From Clostridiales bacterium DTU032 (GTDB taxonomy: Bacteria > Bacillota > Clostridia > Saccharofermentanales > DTU023): a stretch of DNA of 64,000 bases. A model generated the notes under the pieces. It was given only the letters and a program-made list of their open reading frames with translations. It was not told the DNA's origin and ran no database searches. The stretch lies in NCBI GenBank assembly GCA_001512745.1, contig LFSM01000060.1, positions 4,493 through 68,492 of the forward strand, read 5' to 3'. The position numbers and the translations under genes were made by a program. Shown piece after piece: positions 5,820 through 61,457 of this stretch (its first letter is position 1; each line of letters begins with the position of its first letter).

Positions 5820-5958
5820 AGTGGATCTTTCCTTATAATTATTATTACTACAAATAATCATATCCAACTGTCTTAACAAAGTTTAAGGGACACTTCTTTA
5901 TGTGAAGTGTCCCTCAACCGGTCTTTTTTATACGCTGTTATTATCAATCGGGCTTAGT

Positions 5959-6540: not shown

Positions 6541-6800
6541 GTTCAACACCTCTTTTCCGGTGAATTAACGTCTGACAATCTGTGTCGATGATTACGACGT
6601 TGGCTTATGATTATTTCTAAGTGTTTTTAACTTTAGCAGGAATAGCGATAAATATCAAGATTTGTTACAAAGGATAAAGATCGATATTTTCAAACAAAAA
6701 GATTGCCGCTTAAGGCGCAGTCTTTATGGAACAGATTGAACTGTGATAGAATAATCTCGCACCGTTGAGGTGTTTCAATCCATCTATTAGGAGGCCTCAC

Positions 6801-10838: not shown

Positions 10839-10969
10839 GTTTTAACTAGTATTTAGAAAATGCCGGAACTTTCAGTTGAACATGACTTTGAACTTTTGCA
10901 TTAGAATGTATACAGTTAGTTTTTTAAAAAAATAAATCTTAATTAGAGATATGCTTAGGAGGTTTTTTG

Positions 10970-12169: not shown

Positions 12170-12204
12170 ACCAGTAGCGAAATTCCCGGAAGATTCAGTA
12201 ATAA

Positions 12205-12235
12205 CGGGCCGGGAGCGATTCTTGGCCCGGTTTTA
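12205..12235 (+). terminator. Short hairpin plus T-run between the dehydrogenase and decarboxylase genes
   Basis: The sequence CGGGCC-gggagcgattctt-GGCCCG followed by GTTTTAT gives a weak 6-bp stem. Confidence 0.35.
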
Positions 12236-12271
12236 TGAAAGCATTTGAAGGCATAGCTGGTAGAAAAAAGA

Positions 12272-13570
12272 ATGAAGAAGAACAATGTAAACACGTATGG
12301 ACAGGATGATGACGCTCTGAATCCACGCAAGCTATTCAAAGAACTGAACCGACCGGCAGCTGCTGACTTGCCGCTGTTTGATGTTCCTACACCTTATTAC
12401 TTAATTGATCTGCGCGCGCTTGAAGACAATTTGCGTCTCTTGAACGCCATCATGAAGGCCGCTGACTGCAAAATTTTACTGGCCCAGAAGGCCTTTGCCT
12501 GCTATCCGCTATACCCGCTGATCGGCAAATATCTCAGCGGTACTGCTGCCTCGGGTCTTCATGAAGCTCTCCTGGGCCGTGAAGAGATGGGTGAAGACAG
12601 TGAAGTACATGTCTATTCTCCTGCTTTCAAAGACTCTGAATTTGAAAAGCTGTTGGGAGTAGTGGACAAGATTGTTTTCAATAGCTTTGAACAATGGATC
12701 AAATATCGCGACCGCCTGCTGGAACACAATCTCTGTGGAGACAGGCAGATCTCTCCCGGCCTGAGGATCAATCCCGGTTATTCAGAGCTTGAACATGAGA
12801 TATATGATCCTGCAGCTCCAAATTCACGCCTAGGTGTTTCAGCCGAACAGTTTAAGGCCGGTGTGAAAGACGGCTTGTTTGAAGGTCTGGAAGGCATACA
12901 TTTTCACTCACTTTGTGAACAAAATTCTGATGCTCTGGCTAACACGCTGGATGCGATTGAAGAAAACTTTGGTGCTTTTCCGAAAGGTCTGCAATGGGTT
13001 AATCTGGGCGGAGGACATCATATAACACGGGCGGATTACGATGTTCAAAGTCTGCTGACCAGCATAAAGCGTGTACAGGCGGCGACCGGTGCTGAGCTTT
13101 ATCTTGAACCGGGAGAAGCGATCGCTCTGGATGCAGGTTTTTTGATAGCGGAAGTGCTGGATCTGGTGAAAAACGTCAAAACTACTGCTATTTTGGATAC
13201 GTCAGCTGCCTGCCATATGCCTGACGTTCTGGAAATGCCCTATACGCCGAAGTGCTTTCTCAGTCAGGAAATCAGTCGCAGCGGTCCTTCCCGCTGGTAC
13301 CAGGCTGCGCCTGCAGCTGAACTTCCCTATGAGATACGTTTAGCGGGACCAACGTGTCTGGCGGGAGATATTATCGGCGATTATTCTTTTGCTGTGCCAC
13401 CCCTGCCCGGTGATAGAATAGTTTTTCTGGATATGGCTATTTACACAATGGTGAAAAATAATACCTTCAACGGCATGCCCCTGCCGGCGATTGGAGTGTA
13501 TCCTGAAGATAAGTCATTGCGGACACTAAAAAGTTTTTCCTATGATGACTTTAAGGCCAGATTGGGCTAA
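12272..13570 (+). CDS. nspC: Carboxy(nor)spermidine decarboxylase (alanine racemase-fold PLP enzyme)
   Basis: TPYYLIDL, NLGGGHH and EPGEAI motifs are present. It carries a ~35-aa N-terminal extension relative to remembered NspC proteins. Confidence 0.8.
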   Translation: MKKNNVNTYGQDDDALNPRKLFKELNRPAAADLPLFDVPTPYYLIDLRALEDNLRLLNAIMKAADCKILLAQKAFACYPLYPLIGKYLSGTAASGLHEALLGREEMGEDSEVHVYSPAFKDSEFEKLLGVVDKIVFNSFEQWIKYRDRLLEHNLCGDRQISPGLRINPGYSELEHEIYDPAAPNSRLGVSAEQFKAGVKDGLFEGLEGIHFHSLCEQNSDALANTLDAIEENFGAFPKGLQWVNLGGGHHITRADYDVQSLLTSIKRVQAATGAELYLEPGEAIALDAGFLIAEVLDLVKNVKTTAILDTSAACHMPDVLEMPYTPKCFLSQEISRSGPSRWYQAAPAAELPYEIRLAGPTCLAGDIIGDYSFAVPPLPGDRIVFLDMAIYTMVKNNTFNGMPLPAIGVYPEDKSLRTLKSFSYDDFKARLG

Positions 13571-35793: not shown

Positions 35794-35887
35794 ACAGCTT
35801 GTTCTGTGATCAGGACCGGAGCCAGAACATACAGGCTGCAAAAAATGTGAGCATTTGTCTTATCTTAGCTTTTGTAATATCATTCAT

Positions 35888-35972
35888 ATGTCGGGGGAGT
35901 CGTAAAACGGCTGAGAGGACTTAGAGTCGACCCTAGAACCTGATCCGGATAATGCCGGCGGAGGGAGTACTG
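35888..35972 (+). promoter_or_regulatory. TPP (THI-box) riboswitch
   Basis: The core tcgggggagtcgt...ggCTGAGAgg...ACCCtagAACCTGATCCGGATAATGCCGGCGgAGGGA matches the remembered TPP aptamer consensus. Its 3' end, GGAGGGAG, doubles as the SD for the GTG at 35977. Confidence 0.85.
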
Positions 35973-35976
35973 ATTA

Positions 35977-36783
35977 GTGTTTTTTCCCAAAAAAGATGAA
36001 TCCTTCAAACAGCAGTTCAGGCATGCCTTTAAGCTGATTTTTCCGCCTGTACTTTTCATCCTGCTGCTGCTCTTGCTTCTGCAGTTTCTGGCTGACAGCG
36101 GAATTCTGAAAAGCTTTGTCCTGCCGGCACCTAGTGCCGTCTTTCATTCTCTGACTGCAGATATGCCGCTCTTTAGACCACATATACTGCAAACACTTAA
36201 AATAGCGTCGCTGGGCTTTGTGCTGAGCGTGATTGTGGGCATGCTTTTTGCTCTTTTGATGTACCGCTTCAAAAGCGTATATCGTATATTTTACCCACTG
36301 GTAGTTGCCTCGCAGACGATTCCGACAATGGTTATAACACCTGTAATCGTACTGATTATGGGCTACAGTGATTTACCGCGGCTCTTCGTAGTAGTACTGA
36401 CTTGTTTTTTCCCGATCACAATCAGCCTGTTCAGTGGCTTGCGTTCCGTTGACAGCGACCTGCTGAAGCTGATGCAGACAATGGGAGCCAGCAGCTGGGA
36501 AACTATGCGACACGTACTCCTGCCAGCGAGTATGCCGCAGCTATTCTCCGGTCTGCGGATCTCGGCCACCTATAGTGTGATGTCAGCTGTTTTGGCTGAA
36601 TGGTCAGGTGGAGGAGAGGGGCTTGGCATACTTATGCTGCGGAGCAAACGTTCCTTCCGTTTTGACCGCATGTTCGCCGCTGTCATATTGATTATTGTGT
36701 TGAGCCTGGTATTTTACGGAATAGTTATAGTGCTGGAGCGCATCATGATGCCCTGGCAGAAATCACTGAAACAGAGAACATGA
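35977..36783 (+). CDS. thiX: ABC permease (NitT/TauT family), HMP/thiamine-precursor transporter
   Basis: It is a BPD-type permease with 6 TM helices and lies immediately behind the TPP riboswitch. Confidence 0.75.
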   Translation: MFFPKKDESFKQQFRHAFKLIFPPVLFILLLLLLLQFLADSGILKSFVLPAPSAVFHSLTADMPLFRPHILQTLKIASLGFVLSVIVGMLFALLMYRFKSVYRIFYPLVVASQTIPTMVITPVIVLIMGYSDLPRLFVVVLTCFFPITISLFSGLRSVDSDLLKLMQTMGASSWETMRHVLLPASMPQLFSGLRISATYSVMSAVLAEWSGGGEGLGILMLRSKRSFRFDRMFAAVILIIVLSLVFYGIVIVLERIMMPWQKSLKQRT

Positions 36784-47720: not shown

Positions 47721-47787
47721 AAATTTGACTTGGAACAGATGCTTGTATGAGCTGTAACGATAGTGTATATTATTTTCGTACAAATAA

Positions 47788-47952
47788 ATATTTCCGGGGC
47801 AGGGCGTGAATCCCTACCGGCGGTGATGCTCCTTGGCGAGACGAGCCCGCGACCTTAGTGGATGACGGGGTGAGAACCCCCGGCCGACCGTATAGTCGGG
47901 ATGAGAGGAAAGTGGCTTTTAGCGAAGTTATGCCCCATTTTGGGGCTTTTTT
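47788..47952 (+). promoter_or_regulatory. FMN (RFN) riboswitch with an intrinsic terminator expression platform
   Basis: The segments ccGGGGCAGGGcGtGAAtCCCTACCGGCGGTgAtG...AGCCCGCGA...CCGaCCGTATAGTCgGGATGagAGa match the remembered RFN consensus. The terminator GCCCCAttttGGGGC plus T6 lies at 47932-47952. Confidence 0.9.
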
Positions 47953-48867: not shown

Positions 48868-50289
48868 TTGCCGAGCTTCTTTTCGGAAATAGGTGAATTT
48901 TTCAGCGGCATCTGGCGGAGTATGGCGGATGGCCTGCTCTTTTTGGGCGGCCCGCTTGATATGTTTGTTTCGGCCTTAGATATTCTGATAACAACTCTGG
49001 TCTTCTACTTTATTCTGAAATTATTCCGTGACTCGAGAGCCTGGCAGCTTTTGCGGGGTATTTTACTGATTATAGCTTTTGCGATTGTGACCAGCTTTCT
49101 TGGCCTTAACACCATTAGTTTTCTTTTTAATAATACAATTTCCATTTTAGCGATTGCAGTTTTAATCATCTTCCAGCCTGAACTGCGGAAGACTTTAGAA
49201 AAATTGGGTCGAAATCGTCTGGTTAAGTACATTTCGCCCAAGGAAAGAGAGAATGCTGTCGATCCCGGTAAACGGCAGCTGATAGAGTCCATTGTTTCTG
49301 CCTGTGAGTCAATGAGCAAAACCAGAACAGGCGCCCTGATCATAATCGAACGGGATACGCGTCTAGGTGAACTGCAATCACAGGAAAATGCTGTTCAGAT
49401 AGATGCAGGTGTTTCTACAACTTTACTTAAACAGATTTTTTATACCGGTTCACCTTTACATGATGGAGCAGTTCTAATCCGCGACGACCGGATAGCAGCA
49501 GCCCGGATTCACGTTCCTTTGTCGGATGCCTATCATCTTCGTCATGAATTCGGAACAAGGCACCGGGCAGCGGTTGGCGCGAGCGAACTGGGCGATGCGG
49601 TTGCTGTTGTTGTGTCTGAGGAGAGGGGCACCATCAGTCTGGCTGTTGAAAGCAGGCTGTTCGAACTGGCCAATGCAGATGCTTTGCGCAGCCAGCTCTA
49701 TCGACTTCTTATGCCCGAAGGCAGTGGAGAAAAACGCAGTTTTAAAGAGTGGCTGCAGGATATTTTCATCAAAAATGATGCCGAAAAACTGGAGCAGGAG
49801 GCAGCAGCAGCTGATGCTGAAGCCAAGGATGAGACTGAGGAGCCGGAGAGCAAGAGAACAAGACGCAGTCGCAGCAGCCGGACCAAACAAACCACTTTAC
49901 TTAAAAAACAACGTATCGGACTGGCAGCTTTCTCATTTGTTCTGGCATTTTTCTTTTGGCTCTATGTCCAGGTTACAGTCGATCCGGTTACAAGCAGCTC
50001 ATTTAATGTCCCTCTTACATATCATGGCGTAGAAGCAGCAGCTGAAAAAGGTTTCGGCATTCAAGGTTATCCGGTCACTGACATTCAACTGACTCTGAAG
50101 GGGCGCACTGAGCTTTTAAAGAATATATCTGTTACGGACCTTACAGCCTATATCGATGTCAGCGAAGTTGAACGGGCAGGTGTGATAGAATTATCTGTCG
50201 GGATTGAAACGGATACCCTGCTATACACGAAGACTGAAACCGTTTTGCCGGGTTCAGTTCGTGTTAATGTATATGAACTTCAACCCTGA
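48868..50289 (+). CDS. cdaA: Diadenylate cyclase CdaA fused to a TM helix and a single YbbR (CdaR-like) domain
   Basis: Three N-terminal TM helices are followed by DAC domain motifs TGALIIIERD, GSPLHDGAVLI and GTRHRAA. A charged linker, a fourth TM helix IGLAAFSFVLAFFFWLYV and a ~110-aa YbbR-like beta domain follow. It is one uninterrupted ORF of 473 aa. The TTG start follows AGGGGGA. Confidence 0.85.
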   Translation: MPSFFSEIGEFFSGIWRSMADGLLFLGGPLDMFVSALDILITTLVFYFILKLFRDSRAWQLLRGILLIIAFAIVTSFLGLNTISFLFNNTISILAIAVLIIFQPELRKTLEKLGRNRLVKYISPKERENAVDPGKRQLIESIVSACESMSKTRTGALIIIERDTRLGELQSQENAVQIDAGVSTTLLKQIFYTGSPLHDGAVLIRDDRIAAARIHVPLSDAYHLRHEFGTRHRAAVGASELGDAVAVVVSEERGTISLAVESRLFELANADALRSQLYRLLMPEGSGEKRSFKEWLQDIFIKNDAEKLEQEAAAADAEAKDETEEPESKRTRRSRSSRTKQTTLLKKQRIGLAAFSFVLAFFFWLYVQVTVDPVTSSSFNVPLTYHGVEAAAEKGFGIQGYPVTDIQLTLKGRTELLKNISVTDLTAYIDVSEVERAGVIELSVGIETDTLLYTKTETVLPGSVRVNVYELQP

Positions 50290-50303
50290 TAATAAGAGGA
50301 AAT

Positions 50304-51674
50304 ATGTCTAGATTATTTGGAACTGATGGTGTTCGCGGTGTCGCGAACAAAGATTTAACGCCTGATTTGGCATATAGATTGGGATATGCAGCTGCCTACA
50401 TCCTGACAGACAGGCATATGGGCAGACCACGTGTTCTTGTAGGTGAAGACACCCGTGTTTCCCGTGGTATGCTGGCTTCTGCCCTGGTGGCCGGACTTTG
50501 TTCTGCCGGCGCCGATGCCATCGAGTGTGGGATCGTGCCCACTCCTGCAGTTGCCTGGCTGATAAGACATTTTTCAGCTGATGCCGGAGTGGTTATTTCC
50601 GCTTCCCACAATAGCTTTGAATTCAACGGAATTAAGCTGTTTGGAGGCGACGGCTATAAACTGGCAGATGAGACGGAAGATTTAATTGAAGCCCATGTGA
50701 GAAAGTATCGCGAAAAAGATCACAGCCGTCCCTATGGTGAGGATGTCGGCCGCAGGATTGAGGCTTTTGAAGCTGCTGATCTCTACCGCGAACATTTGGA
50801 GGATATTTCAGGACTTGATCTTAGTGGAATGCGCCTGGGCCTTGATTGTGCCAACGGTGCCAGTTACGAGATAGCCCCGCGTCTCTTCCGTGATTTGAAT
50901 GCTGAAGTTCATGCCATCGGGGTTGAACCCGATGGTTATAATATCAACCGTGAATGTGGCTCTATGCATTTGGACAAACTTATTGCACTAGTCAAAGAAA
51001 AAAAGCTTGATCTTGGTTTCGCCTTTGACGGTGACGCTGACCGTGTATTAGCAGTGGACTCGGATGGCTATGTCTGTGATGGAGATATCATCATGACCAT
51101 CCTTGCTCTTGTCTTAAAGAAAGAAGGCAAGCTGATAGAAGACACTCTGGTTACTACTGTCATGAGTAATTTCGGCCTGAACCAGATGGCGGAAAAGTAC
51201 GGGATTGTGCTGGAACGTACCCAGGTTGGTGACCGCTATGTCATGGAACGCATGCGGGAAGGCGATTTCAATTTGGGTGGAGAACAAAGCGGACACATTA
51301 TTTTGAGGGAGCATTCGACCACAGGCGACGGAATACTTTCAGCTCTTCAGCTTTTGAAAGCCCTGAATAGTGAGGGGCAAAGCCTGGAAGAGGCCAGACA
51401 GGCAGTGAAAATCTGCCCTCAGGTTTTAAAAAATGCTCATGTCAGCAGTGAATCAGCTAAGAAAAGAATAATGGGACACAGTAAGCTCAGCAAGAAAATA
51501 AAAGAAATTGAAAGTGTTTTGGGGAAAGATGGGCGTGTACTGGTGAGATCCTCAGGCACAGAACCTCTGGTCAGGGTTATGCTGGAAGGCAACGATACCG
51601 ACGAAATCAATGGCTATGCTGACGAGCTTCTGGATCTGGTCTATTTCCTGGACAAGGACAACAGGGGGAACTGA
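50304..51674 (+). CDS. glmM: Phosphoglucosamine mutase
   Basis: The start MSRLFGTDGVRG and the active-site motif SASHNSFEFNGIK are present. Confidence 0.95.
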   Translation: MSRLFGTDGVRGVANKDLTPDLAYRLGYAAAYILTDRHMGRPRVLVGEDTRVSRGMLASALVAGLCSAGADAIECGIVPTPAVAWLIRHFSADAGVVISASHNSFEFNGIKLFGGDGYKLADETEDLIEAHVRKYREKDHSRPYGEDVGRRIEAFEAADLYREHLEDISGLDLSGMRLGLDCANGASYEIAPRLFRDLNAEVHAIGVEPDGYNINRECGSMHLDKLIALVKEKKLDLGFAFDGDADRVLAVDSDGYVCDGDIIMTILALVLKKEGKLIEDTLVTTVMSNFGLNQMAEKYGIVLERTQVGDRYVMERMREGDFNLGGEQSGHIILREHSTTGDGILSALQLLKALNSEGQSLEEARQAVKICPQVLKNAHVSSESAKKRIMGHSKLSKKIKEIESVLGKDGRVLVRSSGTEPLVRVMLEGNDTDEINGYADELLDLVYFLDKDNRGN

Positions 51675-51677
51675 TCA

Positions 51678-52958
51678 ATGCGTCGCCTGCAAAGTGCTCG
51701 TATTGTATTCGTCATCAGTCTGGTATCGATCCTTCTGCTGATATTATCATTTGCCGGTGTTTTGAACCCTCCTATAGCCGGAGCAGATCGCTTTGCTGAG
51801 GAGCGTGAAGCTGCGCATGATCTCGGTGCTCCGGATTTGCTTAATCCTAATGAAAGTAAAAAGGATAGTGATTCTACAGGACAAATCGTTGATTCATCAA
51901 TAGATCCAACTGAGTCACAAGAAGGGCATGACAGTCTTGACCCGGAGGGAAGTGATCCGGTGTCTACTATCACTTTGGATGTCAGCGGAAATGACCCGGC
52001 TTTAGTACCGGCACGGGAAGACGGGATGCTCAGGGTCTGGCCCCAGGAATTATCCCTGCCAAAACTGCATGATGTAGATTATGATTATTACCTTTCCCTT
52101 GAGCAAGAAAGCAGACCTCTCAGTGGAATAACAGTAATACTGGATCCGTCTTTCGGTGGCAGCTCAACGGGTGCCAGTGCTGTAACGGATAGTGGTGTTT
52201 TAGCTGAAAAGGACATTGTGCTCGTTATTGCACAGATAGCTGAGCGCTATCTGACAGAAATGGGAGCCAATGTGATTATGACGCGCAGCAGCGACATTGA
52301 ACACTCTCTCTTCTATGTGGCAGCCTTAAGTGCGGACACTGTGCTGGAAGCTTATTCCAAAGAAGCCGCAGCTGCTAATTATGATACACAACTGATCGAC
52401 GATCTGCGCCTTCAGATGTCTGATGTCATGCGCATTAATCAAAATAGCGCCGACTCGGGCGGCCGTGGTCTCTTTGGCGGTATCGGAACTTCTGCACGGC
52501 TGCGCCTGATCTATGATATTCAAGCCCAGTACGGCGATGTGCTTTTCATTAATATATCTTTGAATCAGGATAATGATCCTAATAAGTCGGGAGCGGAAAT
52601 CCGTTTAATGAAACAAGATTTTGTAACAGAGGTAAACAACAGCTATGTTGAGGATCAGGACCCCAATAGCTTGTCGCCGAATTACAGCATGATTGACAGT
52701 CAGAACCGGACAAAACTGGCCTGGCTGCTTTATGGACATCTTAAGCATCAGTCACCCACAATCGCAGCGGATGCTGAACCACGTCTTACTGAAACTGATA
52801 TGGCGGTGCTGCGGCTGAATAACCTCACTTCGGTGTCAGTTGTGCCCGGCTATCTCAGCAACGCAGCTGACCTGGCAGAGCTGGGCTCTGCAGCAGGCCA
52901 GCAAAGAATCGCTTCTGCGATTGCCTATGCAGTTCGTCAATACTATGTTGGTCCATAA
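51678..52958 (+). CDS. Secreted/anchored Amidase_3-like protein lacking the zinc ligands (probable pseudo-amidase)
   Basis: ILDPSFGGSSTGA aligns with the canonical DPGHGG..GA. AEKDIVLVIAQ...GANVIMTRSSD matches the fold. VLFINISLNQ aligns with the canonical LFISIHANA. Confidence 0.6.
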   Translation: MRRLQSARIVFVISLVSILLLILSFAGVLNPPIAGADRFAEEREAAHDLGAPDLLNPNESKKDSDSTGQIVDSSIDPTESQEGHDSLDPEGSDPVSTITLDVSGNDPALVPAREDGMLRVWPQELSLPKLHDVDYDYYLSLEQESRPLSGITVILDPSFGGSSTGASAVTDSGVLAEKDIVLVIAQIAERYLTEMGANVIMTRSSDIEHSLFYVAALSADTVLEAYSKEAAAANYDTQLIDDLRLQMSDVMRINQNSADSGGRGLFGGIGTSARLRLIYDIQAQYGDVLFINISLNQDNDPNKSGAEIRLMKQDFVTEVNNSYVEDQDPNSLSPNYSMIDSQNRTKLAWLLYGHLKHQSPTIAADAEPRLTETDMAVLRLNNLTSVSVVPGYLSNAADLAELGSAAGQQRIASAIAYAVRQYYVGP

Positions 52959-52964
52959 TTTTTA

Positions 52965-52999
52965 GCAAAAAAATGGCTGCCCGATTGCAGCCATTTTCT
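52965..52999. terminator. Bidirectional terminator
   Basis: An A7 tract, the hairpin AATGGCTGC-ccgatt-GCAGCCATT and a T tract are present. Confidence 0.75.
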
Positions 53000-53018
53000 G
53001 AAGTATAAAAGATCAATT

Positions 53019-54053
53019 TTACTCTGCTTCGGAGAACTTGGAGAAATTCAAGGCGTAAGTTGCAGCTACTGACAGAGCATAATCAGGATCACTCTCATCT
53101 AAATCTCTTAAGATTTGGATCATTTGCTCTTCTTGTTCCTTTTTGATTACCATTAAAACCATATTTCGTTCAATGTCAAAACTCTCTTTGAAAAAACTGC
53201 CGGCTTTGTCTGTGTGTCTGATACCGCGGCCATGAATGATGGTTGCCCCCATATTTCCTGCTGCCTCGCAAGTTTGAATTATACTTTTGGTTTTGGCACG
53301 GTTTACCATCACTAAAAGAACAGTATGAGGGCTGGGAGTAGTCACTGTCCAGCTTCCTCTAATCAGCTGCTCGGTGTCTTCATGCCCCATAATTCCCAAG
53401 GTTTCTGTGACATAAAGAGAAAAGATTATTCCACGGCCCGGTGTGCTGGTGCTAAGAGCTTGCAAGAGCGCCTGCTGTAAACTATCAGCTTTTTCTTTGT
53501 CGCTAACCAGGAGAACCATATCTTTACGCGGATTAATATCAAAATCGAAGACATGGGCACTATGATCAGCGCTGCCCATTGCAGAAATAATGGTGGCACC
53601 GGCAGCTCCATTTTCGCGTGCAATATCAACAACAGTATTACCTTCACCGTTGTCGACTATTGTGATCAGAGCCCGATAGTTTGCTTCTGAAGTCCCCATT
53701 TCCAAATTAACTGCAGACTGCTTATCTTCTTTCTTCTCAAGATCCAGCAAAGGCTGGATAAAGGCGATACCTAAGTCTTTTTCGCCAAAATGACCGATAT
53801 CTCTTATCTTGTGCAGAAGCTCTGAGGCTGTTTGCAGCTTTCCCACAGTTATGAGGATAAGTTCGCGCCGTATCTCATCTAAGCCCAGCATGCGCAAGAT
53901 GCGCTTGGGGACAGTTCCGTGACCGGAAAATACTGTAGCACAGCTGGCACCTTCCTGGAGTGCAAAATGAGCAATTGCCTCCGCGCGTCCAGGGGGTACA
54001 ATCATAAGCAGGATGGCCTGGTTAGCAAAACCTATATCAGAAATAGTAGTCAT
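53019..54053 (-). CDS. Protein made of three tandem P-II-like (GlnB-fold) domains
   Basis: Three ~100-110-aa internal repeats share the GA.GATI(I/V).G.G core and flanking hydrophobic strands. An RBS GGGAGGA precedes the ATG. Confidence 0.7.
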   Translation of the reverse strand: MTTISDIGFANQAILLMIVPPGRAEAIAHFALQEGASCATVFSGHGTVPKRILRMLGLDEIRRELILITVGKLQTASELLHKIRDIGHFGEKDLGIAFIQPLLDLEKKEDKQSAVNLEMGTSEANYRALITIVDNGEGNTVVDIARENGAAGATIISAMGSADHSAHVFDFDINPRKDMVLLVSDKEKADSLQQALLQALSTSTPGRGIIFSLYVTETLGIMGHEDTEQLIRGSWTVTTPSPHTVLLVMVNRAKTKSIIQTCEAAGNMGATIIHGRGIRHTDKAGSFFKESFDIERNMVLMVIKKEQEEQMIQILRDLDESDPDYALSVAATYALNFSKFSEAE

Positions 54054-54088
54054 TTATTCCTCCCGGAAAGCCTGTGCTGAAAGCAAGT

Positions 54089-55591
54089 TTACGTCAAGTC
54101 TTCGCTGGCAGGGACTTGCTCTTCTTTGCGCTGCCGGCGTTTATAAATCAGGCCCATTGCTTGAATTGTTATTAACGGAGCCATCGCTACCAGAGCGACT
54201 ACACCAAAGCCATCGACAAGGATATTAGCGCTAGGATGAGCACCGGCAGCTCCCTGGGCAAAAGCGAGTATAAAAGTTGCCGTCATCGGTCCTGATGCAA
54301 CACCACCCGCATCGAAGGCGACACCGATAAAGAGATCCGGTGTAAAATAGCTCAGAATCATGATGAGAATGTAGGCAGGCAGAAGAATATGCCAGAGCAT
54401 CAGACCTTCAACATATATCCTTATCATAGCAAGAACAATGGAAAAAGCTACGCCAATTGCCAACGATAGCAAAGTCAGACTTCTGGGAACTGTGCCGCCG
54501 GTGTTTTCCTGTACCGAGTCCGTGAGAACATGGACGGCAGGCTCAGCGATAACCGTTAGCATACCAAGAAAAAATCCTGCCAGGATTGTCAGAAAGGGTG
54601 AATATTCAAGTACAAGTTGAGCGCCGATATAGCGGCCGACCCGCATAAAGCCTCCGTTGACCCCGGTCATAAAGAGACTGAGGCCAATATAGCAATAAAG
54701 CAGACCGATCATAATTCGGGAAACAGTCTTATCTTTAAGCTTTAGTATTCCCAGCTGAATAACAATAAAAACAATAGCCAGGGGAGCAATACTAAGCAAA
54801 GAATCAACTAAGACTCCGGATAGAGATGTGATAAAAGGTTCCATGAAAAATGCCGGAGCCAGATTTTCTGCCATGTCGACTTGTTGATAACTGACCGGAG
54901 AATCGACTGCACCCTGAATCAGCATAGCAAATATAGCGCCCGCAGAAGCCAGACCTACCATGCCATAGCGATCTCTGGCATCTTCAGCTTCACCTTCAAA
55001 TAAACCGGCAATTCCTGCGGCGAGTGCGAGCAAGAAGGGGGTGGTTATGGCCCCTGTGGTTGAACCTGAAGCATCAAAGGAAAATGCGAGAAATTCGGGA
55101 GAATTAAATAAGGCCAGCAGAAAGATTATGCCATAGGTTACCCAGATAACAGTACGCAAACGAATATGTTTGACTAATCTCCAAAAGCCAATCATAACCA
55201 TCACTCCGACACCGATAGAGACTACCAGAACCATCTGCCATCTGCCAACGACGTTGGCAGTAAACTGTTCTACCTGTACAGATAAAACATGGAGGTCAGG
55301 TTCAGCGATGGAAATAATGAAGCCTAAGAGAAGTCCGCCGATCAAAAGAACAGGCATATTATTCGTTTTGACCAGAGCTCCACCACTCAGCTCACCTATG
55401 GGTGTAGCTCCAAGGTCAACCCCGACCAGGAATATTCCCAGGCCAACGATAATTAAAACAGCACCAATAATAAAACGCCAAAAATCATCAACAGGGATGG
55501 GGGTCAATGTGAAATGTAATAAAATAACGAAAAAGGTGATCGGTAAGACCGATGCACCCATTTCTTTCAGTTTCTCAGTAAATAATCCCAA
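54089..55591 (-). CDS. Internally duplicated polytopic membrane protein, DUF1538-like (2 x ~250 aa)
   Basis: The protein is 500 aa with ~12 TM helices. The two halves share GLxxFLxGV and IAEPDLHVLSVQVEQ / IAEPAVHVLTDSVQE. The TTG start follows AAGAGG. The DUF1538 assignment is from memory. Confidence 0.6.
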   Translation of the reverse strand: MGLFTEKLKEMGASVLPITFFVILLHFTLTPIPVDDFWRFIIGAVLIIVGLGIFLVGVDLGATPIGELSGGALVKTNNMPVLLIGGLLLGFIISIAEPDLHVLSVQVEQFTANVVGRWQMVLVVSIGVGVMVMIGFWRLVKHIRLRTVIWVTYGIIFLLALFNSPEFLAFSFDASGSTTGAITTPFLLALAAGIAGLFEGEAEDARDRYGMVGLASAGAIFAMLIQGAVDSPVSYQQVDMAENLAPAFFMEPFITSLSGVLVDSLLSIAPLAIVFIVIQLGILKLKDKTVSRIMIGLLYCYIGLSLFMTGVNGGFMRVGRYIGAQLVLEYSPFLTILAGFFLGMLTVIAEPAVHVLTDSVQENTGGTVPRSLTLLSLAIGVAFSIVLAMIRIYVEGLMLWHILLPAYILIMILSYFTPDLFIGVAFDAGGVASGPMTATFILAFAQGAAGAHPSANILVDGFGVVALVAMAPLITIQAMGLIYKRRQRKEEQVPASEDLT

Positions 55592-55621
55592 AATATACCT
55601 CTTTTATTAAGGATAACCTGA

Positions 55622-57616
55622 CTAGAAGAATGGCGCAAACACCATTGCCACTATGGTCATCAACTTAATAAGGATATTGATTGAAGGTCCCGAAGTATCT
55701 TTGAAAGGATCGCCAACAGTATCACCGACAACAGCAGCACGATGTGCTTCACTTCCGGGACCGCCTTCATGACCTTCCTCAATATATTTCTTAGCATTGT
55801 CCCAGGCACCGCCTGAGTTGGATAAGGTAATCGCGAGGACTACGCCGGTTACGAGAGCTCCGGCCAGCATGCCGCCTAAAGCAACCGGACCTAAAGTCAA
55901 ACCTATAAGGACCGGGCCTAAAACCGACAGCAAGCCCGGCAGAATCATTTCGCGGAGGGAAGCATTGGTGCTGATCTCAATACAGCGGTTATAATCAGGC
56001 AGTTCTGTTCCTGCAATGATACCCGGCTCATTTCTAAACTGCCGCCTGACTTCTTCTATCATCTGGAAGGCAGCTTTGCCCACCGAGTTCATAGTTAAGG
56101 AAGAGAAAAGGAAGGGAAAGGCACCACCGATAAACAAACCAATGATAGCATGCGGATCCAGTAAATCTATAACTGCCAGATTGGATACCTGTGCATAAGA
56201 GACAAACAGGGAGAGAGCTGTCAGAGCCGCTGAGCCGATGGCAAATCCTTTGCCGATGGCAGCTGTTGTGTTACCGACACTATCCAGCTTGTCAGTAATT
56301 TCACGGACTTCATGCGGCAGGTCAGCCATCTGTGCGATACCGCCGGCATTGTCGGCGATGGGGCCATAAGCATCAACGGAAATAGTCATACCTACTGTGG
56401 ACAGCATGCCGACTGCTGCCAGAGCAACTCCGTAAAGGCCAACTGACCTGAAGGAGGCGAAGGTGGCTGCAGCGATGAGCAGAATCGGGACAAAGGATGA
56501 GCCCATACCAAGGGCGAAACCGTCAATTATGTTAGTAGCAGCTCCAGTTCGGCAGGCCTTAGCCAGATTTTTCACCGGTTTGTAATCAGCAGAAGTAAAA
56601 TACTCAGTTGTAGTGCCGATAAGAACACCGGTAATCAGGCCGGATGTAACGGCGATAAAGTGCTGGTAGGTACCAAAGAGCCAATAGCTGAGTCCCAGGG
56701 CCGCCAGCATGGTTAACAAGCTGCTGACATAAGTACCGGTATTAAGAATTTTTGCAGGATTTTTCATTTTAATCCTGGTCACAACAATAATACCAATAAG
56801 TGAAAAAAGAGCTCCGGCTCCACTTAGCAGGAGCGGATATGATACGGCTGCTATCCGATTGCCGACCAGCTCAGCAGGCAGTGTAACAGCAAGAGTGATT
56901 GCTGATACGATAGCTCCGACATAAGACTCGAAGAGGTCACTGCCCATACCGGCGACATCGCCGACATTATCACCAACGTTATCGGCAATAACTGCAGGGT
57001 TACGCGGATCATCTTCAGGGATTCCTGCTTCCAGTTTGCCGACCAGGTCAGCGCCGACGTCAGCAGCTTTGGTATAGATGCCGCCGCCTACGCGTCCAAA
57101 TAAGGCCATGGAGGAAGCGCCCAGGCTGAAACCGGTAAGAGCTTCAAGCAAGCCATTGCCGCTGCCCAACTGAATAATTGCGCTGATACCGAGCAAACCC
57201 AGACCGACAACACTAAGTCCCATGACTGTTCCGCCGCTGAAAGCAACCCTCAAAGCTGAACCGATGTCTTTTGTCTTTGCCGCTTCAGCAGTACGGACGT
57301 TAGCCAAAGTTGCAGTGCGCATGCCGAAAAAACCGGCCAGAACAGAGAAAAGGCCTCCGACAACAAAGGCGATAGCGGTAGGCCAGCCCAGAAGGGCCAG
57401 CAACACAAGAAACATGACCACAACAAAGATGGTAATAAACCTATATTCCCGTGAGAGGAAAACCATAGCCCCTTCTCGTATGTATGAGGCTATTTCCTTC
57501 ATCCTGTTGTTGCCTTCAGGCTTGAGTTTTACTGTACGGTAAATAAAAAATGCTGCGATCAAGGTAATTAGCGCAGTGACGGGTAAGATAATTCTGGAAA
57601 ATATCTCGTAGTTCAA
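55622..57616 (-). CDS. hppA: Membrane-integral pyrophosphate-energised cation pump, K+-dependent subclass
   Basis: The motifs [38 protein letters not shown] and [10 protein letters not shown] are present, the last with Ala at the K+-dependence position. The TTG start follows GGAGGA. Confidence 0.9.
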
Positions 57617-57996
57617 CTTCTTTCCTCCACATAGTCAGAAATTTTATAAAAACAATACGTTTAAGCGGTCAGCCCCCTCTTCATAAACGCATTGTTAATC
57701 CAAATATTATGAGCTGAAAGTCCTCCCGGTATTTTGTATTAATCAGTCAAAATAAAAAAAATAATATTCCCTTTCCTGGCGGGCAAGACAGGGTCCTTAT
57801 TTTTTCTTCGAAGTGTATTCACAGCCATTGAGCATTATTCTGAGACGGCTCTGCAGCTTTCTGACTCCGTCTCGATTTATACTAAGTAGTATATTGTATA
57901 AGAAGTTAAAAGGCAAAAATACATAGCTAATATTATGAATATGTATGAATGTTTGCAGGGAAATTTAGGCGAATAGTCAAGAGAAATACTATTTTC

Positions 57997-58011
57997 ATTC
58001 ATTCAATGAAT
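57997..58011. promoter_or_regulatory. Perfect 7-1-7 palindrome ATTCATTcAATGAAT (candidate operator)
   Basis: It was read directly. It lies ~85 nt upstream of the 58096 start and just upstream of an extended -10 element TGcTAATAT (58042-58050). Confidence 0.3.
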
Positions 58012-58095
58012 ATGAGTTTTTGGGCAAAATTACCAAAGCTATGCTAATATTTAACTGATTTCTTTCTAATATCAATACTATCTGGAGGGGACACC

Positions 58096-58410
58096 ATGGA
58101 CAGTAACAGAATATTGGAGCATCCGATACTGGAATTTACTGAGGGCGAAGATCTGCCCTTTAGTTTTGACGGCAGGCAACTTGTGGGCAAGTCCGGTGAT
58201 ACTATAGCTTCAGCTTTGCACGCTGCCGGAGTGCGAGTACTGGGCCATCATTTCAAGACCGGCCGGCCGCGTGGCTTTTATTGTGCCATCGGTAACTGCT
58301 CGTCATGTCTGATGATTGTCAACGGTGTGCCTAACGTACGTGTTTGTGTCGAGCCCTTGCAGGCAGGCATGGTCGTATGTTCCCAGAATGACAGGGGGGT
58401 CTTGCCATGA
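58096..58410 (+). CDS. Small [2Fe-2S] subunit (HcnA / sarcosine oxidase alpha N-terminal-like)
   Basis: The Cys pattern C-x4-C-x2-C-x12-C occurs in FYCAIGNCSSCLMIVNGVPNVRVC. The protein is 104 aa. Confidence 0.8.
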   Translation: MDSNRILEHPILEFTEGEDLPFSFDGRQLVGKSGDTIASALHAAGVRVLGHHFKTGRPRGFYCAIGNCSSCLMIVNGVPNVRVCVEPLQAGMVVCSQNDRGVLP

Positions 58411-59492
58411 TTTCTCTGCCGCTCTTAATAGTGGGAGCCGGTCCGGCAGGATTATGTGCTGCATACAGGGCAGCAGAGGCCGGAGTTGATGTGCTGATTC
58501 TCGAACGAGCGCAGAAAGCTGGCGGCCAGCTGGTGAAGCAAACACACAAATTTTTCGGATCTGAGAAGCAATTCGCATCTACTCGCGGCATCGAAATTGC
58601 GAAAATTTTGACTAATCGGCTGCAGGGGCTGCCGGGACGTGTCCGGCTGCAAACAGATGCGACAGTCCTTGGCTTTTATGAGGATGGTGTAGTTACCGCT
58701 CAGGTCCAGGGCCAGTTTATGAAATATCGTCCGGACTGCTGCATAGTGGCAACAGGAGCTTCAGAGAAAACTCTGGCTTTTGCCGGAAATGATCTGCCAG
58801 GTGTCTATGGTGCCGGTGCTGTGCAGACCCTGATGAACGAATACGGAGTACGTCCCGGAAATCGAGTTCTGATGATAGGTGCAGGCAATATTGGCCTGAT
58901 CGTTTCATATCAGTTGTTGCAGGCCGGCGTGAAGCTGGCAGCAGTTTTGGATGCAGCCGACGAAATTGGCGGTTATCTGGTTCACGCCAGTAAAATCCGC
59001 CGGGCCGGTGTCCCAATTTTAACGCGGCATACAGTTGAAAGAGCTTATGGCAATGAAAAAGTAGAACACGCTATTATTCATGCTTTAGATGATGAGTGGA
59101 AGAAAATACCGGGGAGTGAACAGCAGCTGGATGTGGATGTTATCTGTATTGCAGTCGGCCTTTCACCTCTGGCTGACCTGCTGTGGCAGGCTGAAGTAAA
59201 AATGAAATATATTGCTGCTTTGGGCGGTTATGTGCCCCTGCGTGACGCCGATATGATGACTTCAGCAAAAGGTCTTTATATCGCAGGTGATGTTGCCGGC
59301 ATAGAAGAGGCCAGTTCAGCCATGGTTGAGGGCGAAATTGCCGGTATTGCCGCAACGCAGCGTTTAGGCTTTTCCACTGAAAAGAGTGAGCTTTTGAAAA
59401 AGGATTGTCTGCAACAACTGCGTCAGCTGCGGGCAGGTCCCGGCAGTGAAAAGATCAGGACGGGTATGGCCCTGGCCGGAGGCTATGTGTAA
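58407..59492 (+). CDS. FAD/NAD(P)-binding pyridine nucleotide-disulfide oxidoreductase-family subunit (HcnB / archaeal PDH alpha-like)
   Basis: Two dinucleotide-binding motifs, VGAGPAGLCAA and IGAGNIGLIVS, are present. The start overlaps the previous stop (ATGA). Confidence 0.8.
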   Translation: MISLPLLIVGAGPAGLCAAYRAAEAGVDVLILERAQKAGGQLVKQTHKFFGSEKQFASTRGIEIAKILTNRLQGLPGRVRLQTDATVLGFYEDGVVTAQVQGQFMKYRPDCCIVATGASEKTLAFAGNDLPGVYGAGAVQTLMNEYGVRPGNRVLMIGAGNIGLIVSYQLLQAGVKLAAVLDAADEIGGYLVHASKIRRAGVPILTRHTVERAYGNEKVEHAIIHALDDEWKKIPGSEQQLDVDVICIAVGLSPLADLLWQAEVKMKYIAALGGYVPLRDADMMTSAKGLYIAGDVAGIEEASSAMVEGEIAGIAATQRLGFSTEKSELLKKDCLQQLRQLRAGPGSEKIRTGMALAGGYV

Positions 59493-60322
59493 TGAAGACT
59501 AAATTATCACTGCTAAAAAGAGAAGGTCTGGCTACAGCGGACGATCTGAGGGGACGCCTGCCGGGGGAAGATGACAAGAAGAGAGGACCCTACGCGGTTA
59601 TTGAGTGTTTCGAAGAAATACCCTGCAATCCCTGTGTTGTTTCTTGCCGTTTCAATGCTATTTTGCCATTTAAAGATATAAACGATCTCCCCTATGTGGA
59701 CTTTTCTGCCTGCACAGGTTGCGCTGTCTGCGCCCGGGTCTGTCCGGGCCTGGCCATCTTTATTGTTGATGAATCCATGGATGGAGATATGGGCACGATC
59801 ACGCTGCCATATGAGTATTTGCCTTTGCCTGAAAAAGGCTGGCAGGTGCTGGCGAGAGCCCGCGACGGAAGTGCACTCTTCCCGGCCACAGTAGTGCGGG
59901 TAATGAAAGGTGGCAAGGGTAAAACAGCCCTGGTCAGTCTGGAAGTTCCGAAAGAGTATTTGCAGGAAGTACGGTCTTTTACAGTTCCGGAGGAGGAAGA
60001 TTCCGTTCCCTGCAGCTGTGCAGAGTTGGACTTGGCGGAAGAATCTCCTACGGTTTGCCGTTGTGAAGGTGTGGACCTGCAGGAGATCCGCGATTTGATC
60101 GCCCGCGGCTATAAAACTGTGGACGAGATCAAGCACAGAAGCCGGGCCGGCATGGGACCCTGTCAGGGACGCAGCTGCCGGCAGATAATCCTATCTGAAC
60201 TTGCGCGGGATGCGGGAGTTTCACTGGAAGAATTTGAAGCGGGTAGTTTTCGACCGCCAACAACACCGGTTTCAATGGATGTTTTAGCGAAAGGTAGCGA
60301 AGAAGATGCAGAAAACAGCTGA
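59492..60322 (+). CDS. Iron-sulfur subunit: 4Fe-4S ferredoxin motif plus a C-terminal BFD-like [2Fe-2S] domain
   Basis: The motifs CTGCAVCARVCP, CNPCVVSC and CRCEGV...GPCQGRSC are present. The start overlaps the previous stop (TAATG). Confidence 0.75.
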   Translation: MKTKLSLLKREGLATADDLRGRLPGEDDKKRGPYAVIECFEEIPCNPCVVSCRFNAILPFKDINDLPYVDFSACTGCAVCARVCPGLAIFIVDESMDGDMGTITLPYEYLPLPEKGWQVLARARDGSALFPATVVRVMKGGKGKTALVSLEVPKEYLQEVRSFTVPEEEDSVPCSCAELDLAEESPTVCRCEGVDLQEIRDLIARGYKTVDEIKHRSRAGMGPCQGRSCRQIILSELARDAGVSLEEFEAGSFRPPTTPVSMDVLAKGSEEDAENS

Positions 60323-61457
60323 TGTTGCCATCATAGGCGGCGGAATCTCAGGGCTTTCCATTGCTTTCCAGCTTGCTCAGGCGGGTGTGGGCAATATCGC
60401 AATCATCGAGAAAAACTTCCTTGGCAGTGGTGCGACCGGTCGTTGTGGTGCAGGTATCCGCATGCAGTGGGGGACTGAGCTCAACTGCCTTTTATCAAAA
60501 TATTCCTGTGAATTCTATGAACAGGCACATGAGATTTTTCATAATGATATAGATATAGAATTTGAACAGGGCGGCTATCTGATTGGAGCCGGAACAGATG
60601 AAGAGCTGGAGCAGTTTAAGCAGAATATTAAGCTTCAGAATAAGCTGGGTATTGAATCTGTCTTCCTCAGCCCGGAAGAAGCAGGCGAGATCGTGCCTCA
60701 TCTTGACATCAGGCAGATAAAAGGGGCAACTTTCTGCCACAGGGATGGGCATCTGAATCCATTCCGTACGGTAGAGGCCTATGCCGAAGCTGCTAAAAGT
60801 CTGGGTGTCTCGATTTATGAATACACTGAAGTCAGGGATATTCTTCGTGACGGCAATAAACTGAAGGGTGTGCGGACAGATAAGGGAGATATCAATGCGC
60901 CGGTAGTGGTCAATGCAGCGGGTGGCTATTCCGGTTTGATTGCCGATATGGCATCTGTAGATCTGCCGGTATATTCACAACGCCACCAGATCATGGCTAC
61001 TGAGCCGGTTGAGCCCATGCAGGAACCGATGTTCATGGGCTTTTCACTGAATATTTATATTCAACAAGTACCCCATGGCTCATTCATCATGGGCAGAAGC
61101 GATGACAGCGAGCCGACTGATTTGCGTTTGACTTCGTCCTGGCATTTTCTGGAAGAGATGAGCAGAACTTGTACAAGACTTATGCCACGCCTGGGTCAGT
61201 TAAAAATTGTCCGCCAGTGGGCAGGCCTCTACAATATGACGGCGGACGCACAGCCAATTTATGATGAGGCGCCGGAATTACCCAGTTTTTACCATGCAGC
61301 GGGTTTCTCGGGTCACGGCTTTATGCTGGCTCCGGTTACCGGACACGTAATAGCGAAAAGAATTCTGGGAGAGAAGCCGGATATAGATGTAAGCAGTCTG
61401 AATGTCAGCCGCTTCAAAGAGGGCGGACTCCTGCCGACAGAAAGCTCGGTTGTCTGA
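60306..61457 (+). CDS. FAD-dependent amino-acid dehydrogenase/oxidase subunit (DAO family; sarcosine oxidase beta / HcnC / PDH beta-like)
   Basis: The N-terminal motif VAIIGGGISGLS is present. The protein is ~383 aa and the gene overlaps its upstream neighbour by 17 nt. Confidence 0.8.
   Translation: MQKTADVAIIGGGISGLSIAFQLAQAGVGNIAIIEKNFLGSGATGRCGAGIRMQWGTELNCLLSKYSCEFYEQAHEIFHNDIDIEFEQGGYLIGAGTDEELEQFKQNIKLQNKLGIESVFLSPEEAGEIVPHLDIRQIKGATFCHRDGHLNPFRTVEAYAEAAKSLGVSIYEYTEVRDILRDGNKLKGVRTDKGDINAPVVVNAAGGYSGLIADMASVDLPVYSQRHQIMATEPVEPMQEPMFMGFSLNIYIQQVPHGSFIMGRSDDSEPTDLRLTSSWHFLEEMSRTCTRLMPRLGQLKIVRQWAGLYNMTADAQPIYDEAPELPSFYHAAGFSGHGFMLAPVTGHVIAKRILGEKPDIDVSSLNVSRFKEGGLLPTESSVV

Follow-up and report, generated by a model that had tools for sequence, protein, structure and literature searches.

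Why should a membrane-integral pyrophosphatase, a membrane protein of the DUF1538 family and a chain of three P-II-like domains be encoded one behind the other in a clostridial genome? The question arises from a 64,000-nucleotide (nt) stretch of Clostridiales bacterium DTU032 (contig LFSM01000060.1, positions 4,493 to 68,492), which as a whole is called the window here. The three genes lie on its minus strand: hppA at 55622..57616 (664 amino acids (aa), TTG start), the gene of a fused two-repeat DUF1538 membrane protein at 54089..55591 (500 aa, TTG start) and the triple P-II-like gene at 53019..54053 (344 aa, ATG start). A sequence-only reading had joined them into one module, in which a pyrophosphate (PPi)-driven pump would be coupled to a transporter gated by the P-II protein. 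Comparison of gene neighbourhoods showed that what is conserved, presumably as a functional unit, is the DUF1538/P-II pair and not the hppA triplet. The model favoured here, with moderate confidence, is a cation/H+ exchanger built of inverted repeats and gated by a P-II-like sensor, a conserved pair that stands behind hppA only in the lineage of the window.

The conserved gene pair

The locus was surveyed by comparing a DUF1538 homologue alignment with one genome per species, which yielded 80 loci at 44-80% identity. Most are from Clostridia and Bacilli; a Haloplasmataceae metagenome-assembled genome (MAG), a Caldisericia MAG and one MAG labelled Bacteroidota are also among them. P-II genes were called with a purpose-written open reading frame (ORF) caller and a P-II domain hidden Markov model. 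A P-II-like gene follows DUF1538 immediately, on the same strand, at 73 of the 76 informative loci (73 of all 80). The uninformative loci are three that end at a contig edge (L014, L017 and L051) and one with only ~450 nt left (L077); the gene is truly absent at L035, L065 and L081. At most loci the spacing is below zero (median near -11 nt) and the genes often overlap, the overlaps being over-estimated because the ORF caller took the first possible start. Such tight spacing would fit translational coupling. Clustering of 411 neighbouring ORFs from the 80 loci gave no third recurrent partner, only scattered two-component genes; the next best neighbour family, an OmpR-type regulator, occurs at 11 of them in variable positions.

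Several forms of the pair exist. The commonest is a fused DUF1538 followed by a two-domain P-II protein, found in Bacillota. A three-domain P-II protein with fused DUF1538 occurs in the window clade and in a Bellilinea (Chloroflexi) MAG, where it has 327 aa and its gene overlaps that of DUF1538. On plasmids of Methylocystis rosea and Chelativorans two split DUF1538 genes are followed by a single-domain 'P-II family nitrogen regulator'. The cassette is bracketed by IS66 elements on M. rosea pGW6_2 (L092), and on the Chelativorans plasmid (L091), where one DUF1538 gene is truncated, it lies near heavy-metal P-type ATPase genes. From the plasmid location, the IS66 brackets and the metal ATPase neighbours this split cassette appears to be mobile. 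In one case, P0253 (709 aa), two DUF1538 repeats and a C-terminal tandem P-II region (profile positions 14-222) form a single chain. This fusion was rejected as proof of an interaction, being a singleton cluster, and is kept as weak evidence only. The sequence-only reading had taken the P-II-like protein to be the partner of the adjacent membrane protein; the gene pair, which extends to Chloroflexi and to alphaproteobacterial plasmids, agrees with this, and adjacency conserved across taxa is what is seen in P-II-gated transporter pairs.

Full-text searches, with subscription journals and TCDB outside their reach, gave no paper connecting P-II with DUF1538 or with UmpAB, the characterized member of the family described below. 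A Borrelia paper with many mentions of 'PII-like' was rejected as a link, as it deals with YitT/DUF2179 and not with DUF1538. The near-obligate DUF1538/tandem-P-II pair is apparently undescribed.

The distribution of hppA is quite different. Within flanks of up to 8 kb, hppA stands beside DUF1538 only in the closest relatives (L001-L006, L009 and L010). All are Mageeibacillus-like MAGs; their P-II proteins share 61-63% identity with that of the window, and their whole flank is syntenic with it. At the 72 more distant loci hppA was absent throughout, over the same distance. Two carriers of a triple P-II protein, L011 and L015, have no hppA in the 8 kb upstream. In L093, L095 and L096 the same triple P-II pair is present, and so is the converging amidase-glmM-cdaA operon, but hppA is absent upstream, where TldD/PmbA genes, a two-component system or a MalT-like regulator are found, divergently oriented. 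In these next lineages out the DUF1538 protein is 56-64% identical to that of the window. Viewed from the side of the pyrophosphatase, DUF1538 is near none of the 80 closest metagenome homologues of hppA (48-64% identical; flanks up to 5 kb), 60 of which have at least 1.5 kb of downstream sequence. The neighbourhood comparison that the sequence-only reading had called for thus upheld one half of its proposal, the co-occurrence with P-II, and confined the other half, the linkage to hppA, to the subclade of the window; the general 'PPi-energised' module of three parts fails. By this comparison the hppA linkage is shown to be lineage-specific, a seemingly recent addition in the Mageeibacillus-like subclade and not a property of the module.

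Two P-II matches were found among the 80 hppA loci. Both are AmtB-P-II single-chain fusions (584-586 aa; PF00909 and PF00543), encoded just upstream of the hppA homologues at L104:554-2314 and L111:2877-4631. Fusions of this kind are a known type and parallel the DUF1538-P-II case.

The DUF1538 membrane protein

The protein matches PF07556 in two stretches that cover both halves (405 bits, cut-off 22.6; E 5e-122) and belongs to this family. Its N repeat (~aa 1-235) and C repeat (~aa 250-490) are 28% identical (E 4e-24). The internal duplication with a repeated IAEP..HVL motif, seen already in the letters, was confirmed: IAEPDLHVL (aa 95-103; 55283..55309, minus strand) lies at a helix break of repeat 1 and IAEPAVHVL (aa 348-356; 54524..54550, minus strand) at the corresponding break of repeat 2. 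The second helix break of repeat 1 carries FDASGSTTG (aa 172-180; 55052..55078, minus strand), with FDAGGVASG (aa 426-434; 54290..54316, minus strand) as its counterpart in repeat 2. When scored over 44 homologues, E97, P98, D173, E350, P351 and D427 are invariant, and the split proteobacterial DUF1538 proteins keep acidic residues at the motif positions and the EP dipeptide.

The AlphaFold2 (AF2) model is all-helical, with a predicted local distance difference test score (pLDDT) of 83.7 and a predicted TM-score (pTM) of 0.84, and the motifs fall at helix breaks. The lysine and arginine load of equivalent loops in repeats 1 and 2 is 0.1 versus 3.0 for L1-2, 3.1 versus 1.2 for L4-5, and 3.2 versus 0.0 for L6-7. 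This opposite bias indicates that the two halves are inverted repeats, typical of secondary transporters. The conservation of the four acidic residues E97, D173, E350 and D427, and their predicted positions, support a cation- or proton-binding carrier. No PDB sequence matched at E <= 1. Foldseek with the model gave no significant PDB match either, the best being CLC-ec1 (E 7e-3, TM 0.13-0.18), and no mechanism was drawn from the fold since the matches to CLC and EAAT proteins are not significant. For the same lack of a match, the modelled DUF1538 fold is new among solved structures.

The sequence-only reading had described the family as having no known function. That description is outdated. 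UmpA and UmpB of Halomonas zhaodongensis, when co-expressed, assemble in the membrane as a heterodimer whose Na+(Li+,K+)/H+ antiport activity depends on pH (PMC5484666), and UmpAB is a split DUF1538 pair. The NCBIfam models for UmpA and UmpB (NF041627, NF041628) match the halves of the window protein with 150 bits each, far short of their equivalog cut-offs of 490 and 500. A single 500-aa chain carries both repeats in place of two separate subunits, and this fused form is the common one in Bacillota. The protein of the window is, by these scores, a distant fused member of the family and not an UmpAB equivalog. UmpAB consists of two homologous units of the PF07556 family, as does the window protein. 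The (A/S/G)EP and (F/Y/V)D(A/S)(G/S)G motifs are common to the window protein and the split proteobacterial DUF1538 proteins, UmpAB itself being outside the alignment. The UmpAB paper makes no mention of P-II or PII, whereas here nothing at the locus is as well conserved as the P-II partner. Homology with UmpAB makes an exchange of Na+, K+ or Li+ for H+ the most likely activity of the DUF1538 protein. In a machine learning study PF07556 was one of the Pfam families predictive of optimal growth pH, beside Mrp, Kdp and Trk (PMC13255231).

An unlikely but serious alternative is that DUF1538 carries another substrate, such as ammonium, a metabolite or an anion like bicarbonate, and that the P-II-like protein reports the matching metabolic state, in the way of SbtB with SbtA or GlnK with AmtB. 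The known P-II/transporter pairs do move NH4+ or HCO3-, the distance to the UmpA and UmpB cut-offs leaves room for a different substrate, and the fold matches that come nearest, weak and not significant as they are, include CLC Cl-/H+ exchangers and EAAT carriers. The invariant acidic residues within the membrane speak for cation or proton binding instead, as do the growth-pH statistics, and the sole experimental datum for the family is cation/H+ antiport. In addition, no carbon- or nitrogen-assimilation genes recur near the 80 loci.

The triple P-II-like protein

The partner of the putative cation exchanger has three domains, all encoded on the minus strand: D1 (aa 8-108; 53730-54032), D2 (aa 124-226; 53376-53684) and D3 (aa 240-340; 53034-53336). 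PF00543 matches only the central D2 (48.6 bits, cut-off 25; E 1e-12), which is sufficient to place the protein in the P-II family. Profile-profile comparison by hhalign showed that D1, D2 and D3 are mutually homologous (probability 98.5-99.6%, E 3e-15 to 9e-24). The AF2 model, built from a shallow alignment of 12 proteins collected by a word-indexed search, contains three beta-alpha-beta-beta-alpha-beta units (pTM 0.73, pLDDT 68). The threefold P-II repeat proposed from the sequence is thus seen by two methods. Single domains submitted to Foldseek matched GlnK1 (2j9d), M. tuberculosis PII (3lf0) and CPII (5d4n) with TMt 0.6-0.7.

The domains depart from canonical P-II proteins in both functional loops. 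The loops between beta2 and beta3 are ~12-15 residues long in the AF2 model, against about 19 for a canonical T-loop; the T-loop-like segments 164-173 in D2 and 283-288 in D3 have low model confidence, which fits flexible loops. We take the canonical B-loop, as in GlnB, to read TGxxGDGKIF with a conserved lysine. Here a B-loop-like motif GxGI(I/A)F is found as DLGIAF in D1 and as PGRGIIF in D2, with Ile for Lys, and is degenerate in D3. Neither the T-loop nor the B-loop of the triple protein is therefore that of a canonical GlnB or GlnK. Pfam and NCBIfam scans gave no match to the PstA family; apart from PF00543 there are faint matches to DUF190, DUF2179 and PG0541 only.

An exhaustive search of representative sequences with the triple P-II profile gave 1394 clusters at E <= 1e-3. 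The top 150 of these 1394 are mostly two-domain proteins of ~220 aa, and about 15 have three domains (300-377 aa). The two-domain homologues align to D1 and D2 of the window protein, and by this alignment D3 is a C-terminal addition. A possible intermediate on the way to the triple fusion is the '2+1' state of L016 (a Fastidiosipila MAG, 5692-8215), where a gene for two domains (229 aa) overlaps one for a single domain (102 aa). That the model of a three-domain chain with disordered linkers reaches a pTM of 0.73 implies that the domains pack against one another in a defined way; they probably form a single-chain pseudo-trimer with non-equivalent ligand clefts.

Two other arrangements were noted. 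In the Clostridium-type loci L020, L021 and L033 DUF1538 is followed by two successive two-domain P-II genes. At L035, in Clostridium sp. FAM 1755, which lacks the P-II gene, an 864-aa protein (10004-12598) is encoded ~500 nt after DUF1538; by the look of its sequence alone it is a putative cation-transporting P-type ATPase.

Operon-like structure and the pyrophosphatase

The anatomy that the sequence-only reading described for the three genes was found as stated, both in the ORF list and in the sequence. Each has a purine-rich ribosome-binding site (RBS): GGAGG at 57628-57624 for hppA, AAAGAGG at 55604-55598 for DUF1538 and GGGAGG at 54064-54059 for the P-II-like gene. Gene calls in the relatives agree on lengths of 664 aa (hppA), 499-500 aa (DUF1538) and 340-341 aa (P-II-like). 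The two spacers on the minus strand, 30 nt between hppA and DUF1538 (55592..55621) and 35 nt between DUF1538 and P-II (54054..54088), contain the RBS sites of DUF1538 and of the P-II-like gene, and a consensus pattern scan found no terminator-like site in either, in line with the original remark that no hairpin followed by a T-run separates the genes. That scan gave nine matches against 6.4 +/- 2.9 expected by chance, i.e. no excess.

An intrinsic terminator follows the P-II stop codon at about 52962..52999, as had also been proposed. It has a 13-bp G+C-rich stem between an A-run and a U-run (-20 kcal/mol, z = -3.3 on folding), faces the converging amidase gene and can serve both converging transcription units. 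This terminator, confirmed by folding, escaped the pattern scan, probably because its stem continues into the A and U runs on either side. The spacer of 30 nt has identical length in three related lineages (L001, L005 and L009). Together these features support an operon-like anatomy of the three genes. For the lineage of the window, co-transcription of hppA, DUF1538 and P-II is the most economical reading, as judged from sequence features: a promoter would not fit into the 30-nt spacer, hppA is not followed by a terminator, and the spacer keeps its length.

Upstream of hppA lies a region of 479 bp (57617..58095, minus strand), AT-rich as the earlier reading had it, with 34% GC against 46.8% in the window. 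It includes a conserved promoter-like block on the minus strand (TTGCCT and TATACT, 17 nt apart; 57888-57916), ~270-300 nt 5' of the hppA start codon. Two conserved, terminator-like hairpins follow on the same strand. Hairpin 1, at about 57748-57793, pairs CCCTGTCTTG with AGGAAAGGG and ends in a U-run. Hairpin 2, at about 57647-57696, has a 13-bp stem, AACAAT(G/A)CGTTT...AAACGTATTGTT, followed by U5-6; its loop contains GAGGGGG, and it stands ~20 nt ahead of the hppA RBS. Comparison with the leaders of relatives (L003:3950-4465, L005:3950-4460 and L009:5480-5995) showed compensatory-looking changes between lineages in hairpin 1, the window and these loci amounting to three distinct sequences only, too few for covariation. 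An Rfam search of the 479-bp leader gave no credible family, and one over 52900-58200 gave, at E <= 5, four matches only (E 0.9-4.3, far under gathering scores). A known riboswitch was rejected on account of these chance-level matches. Its conserved hairpins raise the possibility that the leader acts as an unclassified attenuator or riboswitch in a Na+-pyrophosphatase operon.

The pyrophosphatase itself is an ordinary member of a well-known family. It aligns with PF03030 over its full length (645 of 645 profile positions, 901 bits, E 5e-271), and with NCBIfam NF001960, 'sodium-translocating pyrophosphatase', it scores 960 bits against a cut-off of 546. K+-dependent membrane pyrophosphatases have Ala, not Lys, at position 12.46 (A495 in TmPPase, A537 in VrPPase; PMC5150537). 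A 10-residue motif containing GNTTAA is found at aa 448-457 of hppA, and its second Ala was assigned to A12.46 by motif and not by a residue-by-residue alignment to TmPPase; by this assignment the protein is of the K+-dependent class, as had been suggested. The sequence DLFES at aa 227-231 supplies D6.50, E6.53 and S6.54, as in Na+- and Na+/H+-pyrophosphatases. E6.53 is also present in some K+-dependent H+-pyrophosphatases, so it is not fully diagnostic of Na+ pumping (PMC5150537). TmPPase, a K+-dependent Na+-pyrophosphatase (4av3), shares with hppA the Ala in GNTTAA and the D6.50/E6.53/S6.54 set and aligns with it over the full length (571 bits), but the best score among solved relatives is with the plant H+-pyrophosphatase VrPPase (4a01, 610 bits). 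Because of this score, and because E6.53 is shared by some H+ pumps, Na+ (or Na+/H+) pumping by hppA is no more than likely.

Two further alternatives concern the place of hppA. The first, which is improbable, gives the adjacency no regulatory meaning: hppA would have landed before an independent DUF1538/P-II cassette, and the two units would be expressed and work separately. The cassette does stand alone in nearly all other genomes, presumably with its own promoter region, and the hppA link is confined to one lineage. What counts against such independence is the spacer, which lacks room for a promoter, lacks a terminator after hppA and has kept its length although the P-II proteins of the lineages have diverged to 61-63% identity.

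The second, placed lower still and also improbable, is the obligate machine of three parts, with PPi hydrolysis by hppA energising a P-II-gated DUF1538 transporter. It is recommended by tight spacing without an internal terminator, by a gene order and 30-nt spacer kept in three related lineages, and by the possibility that the ion of the Na+-type hppA gate is also that of a Na+/H+ antiport like UmpAB's. Yet the sister lineages L093, L095 and L096 have the same triple P-II gene and the same downstream synteny and lack hppA, as do L011 and L015; hppA is missing from 72 of 72 more distant DUF1538 loci (flanks up to 8 kb), and DUF1538 from the 80 closest hppA loci (flanks up to 5 kb). As the hppA-bearing lineages are syntenic over the whole flank, plain inheritance may explain the conservation among them.

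A proposed P-II-gated cation exchanger

In the model of a gated exchanger, the core unit would consist of a DUF1538 secondary transporter gene and, directly downstream, the gene of a cytoplasmic protein with tandem P-II-like domains. The two DUF1538 repeats would have opposite orientations in the membrane, each giving an acidic pair at the helix breaks (AEP and FDxxG). The analogy of GlnK-AmtB and SbtB-SbtA suggests that the P-II-like sensor would use its flexible T-loop-like segments to dock on DUF1538 from the cytoplasmic side. It would then open or block the transporter according to the small molecule bound, which on the same analogy is assumed most likely to be an adenine nucleotide. In the lineage of the window the pair probably depends on the hppA promoter and its structured leader of ~270 nt. 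Expression of the PPi-driven Na+ pump would then be coordinated with that of the gated Na+(K+)/H+ exchanger, in this lineage only. The use of such an exchanger in a sodium-based energy economy is a possible reason for the placing of the cassette behind the hppA promoter.

Several points weigh against this model. Contact between the P-II-like protein and DUF1538 is inferred from gene adjacency and analogy, and most of the 80 loci are from Bacillota, so that part of the conservation of the pair reflects shared descent. The P0253 fusion lies on one 3.2-kb ENA contig and could be a frameshift artefact at a junction where the genes normally overlap. The P-II domains differ widely from canonical ones: no PDB sequence matches them better than E 0.017, the T-loops are shorter, and with Ile at the conserved B-loop lysine the sensing of an adenine nucleotide is an assumption. 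A pseudo-trimer is not obviously compatible with the common two-domain architecture. As for transport, UmpAB is only a distant relative (150 bits versus 490-500) and the substrate may differ here; its function is drawn from a single complementation and everted-vesicle study (PMC5484666). Finally, as to co-transcription with hppA, a promoter within the 3' end of that gene is conceivable.

A wider interpretation is put forward tentatively, and with more doubt than belief. Together, DUF1538 and tandem P-II would make up a third class of widespread P-II-gated transporters, after AmtB-GlnK and SbtA-SbtB, with a transporter fold that lacks a solved relative and a P-II trimer that has been progressively internalised; in the window lineage the pair would share a transcript with hppA and, with the Na+-type F1Fo operon that adjoins it in relatives, be part of a small sodium-cycle island under the unclassified leader. 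The stages of internalisation would be those seen among the loci, namely a single domain, two domains, a two-domain and a single-domain gene side by side, and three domains. The endpoint would be a single-chain pseudo-trimer, asymmetric and with three clefts free to diverge.

P-II proteins are very widespread signal transducers, and few of their membrane targets are understood mechanistically, chiefly AmtB and SbtA. If the model of a gated exchanger is true, the near-obligate pairing with DUF1538 provides a new and easily tested P-II target, and a regulatory context for DUF1538, a family with thousands of members in Bacillota, one functional report and no solved structure. The tandem and triple P-II chains would be a natural experiment in which a symmetric trimeric sensor turns asymmetric. 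There are also consequences for annotation. As nothing ties the DUF1538/P-II loci to nitrogen, 'P-II family nitrogen regulator' is probably a misnomer for the gene beside DUF1538, and adjacency to hppA should not be taken as a general feature of the module.

Comparison with known P-II systems

The arrangement resembles three known systems and differs from each. As with GlnK-AmtB, a P-II-fold protein is encoded beside the membrane transporter that it presumably regulates; the single domains match GlnK1 by Foldseek, and natural AmtB-P-II fusions exist. Here, however, the partner is DUF1538 and not Amt, the P-II gene lies 3' of the transporter gene, three tandem domains in one chain replace the homotrimer, the T-loop is shorter, the B-loop lacks its lysine, and there is no link to nitrogen genes.

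The gene order, transporter followed by P-II-like gene, is that of SbtA and SbtB. In both systems the P-II-like protein is non-canonical and the membrane partner is a Na+-linked secondary transporter with internal repeats, the Na+ link of DUF1538 being drawn from its homology to UmpAB. The transporter families are unrelated: DUF1538 has no PF05982 match and no significant PDB match, SbtA included. SbtA is a cyanobacterial Na+/HCO3- symporter, whereas the host here is a non-phototrophic member of the Bacillota, and the P-II domains are in tandem.

PstA/DarA likewise has a P-II-like fold and is found in Firmicutes, and an operon for a cyclic di-AMP (c-di-AMP) synthase adjoins the locus in the present clade. 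By sequence the P-II-like protein does not match the PstA family, and PstA is a stand-alone single-domain trimer without an adjacent transporter. In its transporter family, its tandem or triple single chain and its local joining to hppA, the locus differs from the known P-II/transporter pairs.

Neighbouring genes

The c-di-AMP synthase gene belongs to a cdaA-glmM-Amidase_3 operon on the plus strand (48868-52958) that converges on the P-II gene. In the window the CdaA (DAC) and YbbR/CdaR parts are fused into one 473-aa ORF. The synteny of cdaA, glmM and the amidase gene is shared by the window and the triple-P-II clade loci L012 and L093-L096, including loci without hppA. It was rejected as a general clue to c-di-AMP, being restricted to the triple-P-II clade, and kept as a minor rival. 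Control of KhtTU and CpaA by c-di-AMP is the analogy invoked for it, and c-di-AMP targets are mostly transporters of K+ and osmolytes. That the ligand is c-di-AMP, with P-II acting like PstA/DarA or SbtB and the module serving osmotic and pH homeostasis as a K+(Na+)/H+ exchanger under c-di-AMP control, is the least probable of the alternatives. In its favour, the operon converges on P-II in this clade, and the P-II-like PstA and SbtB are reported to bind c-di-AMP (PMC4316997 and PMC8654305). Against it, CdaA is near DUF1538 at only 3 of 80 genome loci, its synteny may be simple inheritance, and the P-II-like protein has no PstA family match.

Between their P-II and amidase genes the closest relatives carry a complete F1Fo ATP synthase operon, convergent to P-II (9058-16227 in L001 and L003, 9072-16236 in L005 and 1386-8550 in L007). 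The window has no such operon at that position, and its 64 kb gave no tblastn match to the c subunit. The c subunit of the relatives reads ...FGQAK...AMAETSGIY..., in which we take Q...ETSGIY to resemble the Na+-binding signature (Q/E-S/T/Y). Taken together, the Na+-type pyrophosphatase and this c subunit suggest a sodium-based energy economy in the lineage, to which a gated Na+(K+)/H+ exchanger would be of use.

A four-gene oxidoreductase cluster (58096-61457, plus strand) is divergent from hppA. It encodes a Fer2_4 protein, a Pyr_redox_2 protein, a protein with 4Fe-4S, BFD and SO_alpha_A3 domains, and a DAO protein, and resembles HcnABC, opine oxidase and heterotetrameric sarcosine/proline dehydrogenase systems. 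In relatives an aldehyde dehydrogenase adjoins the cluster. Elsewhere in the window Rfam identified two riboswitches on the plus strand, an FMN riboswitch at 47786-47916 (95.7 bits) and a TPP riboswitch at 35883-35983 (65.2 bits).

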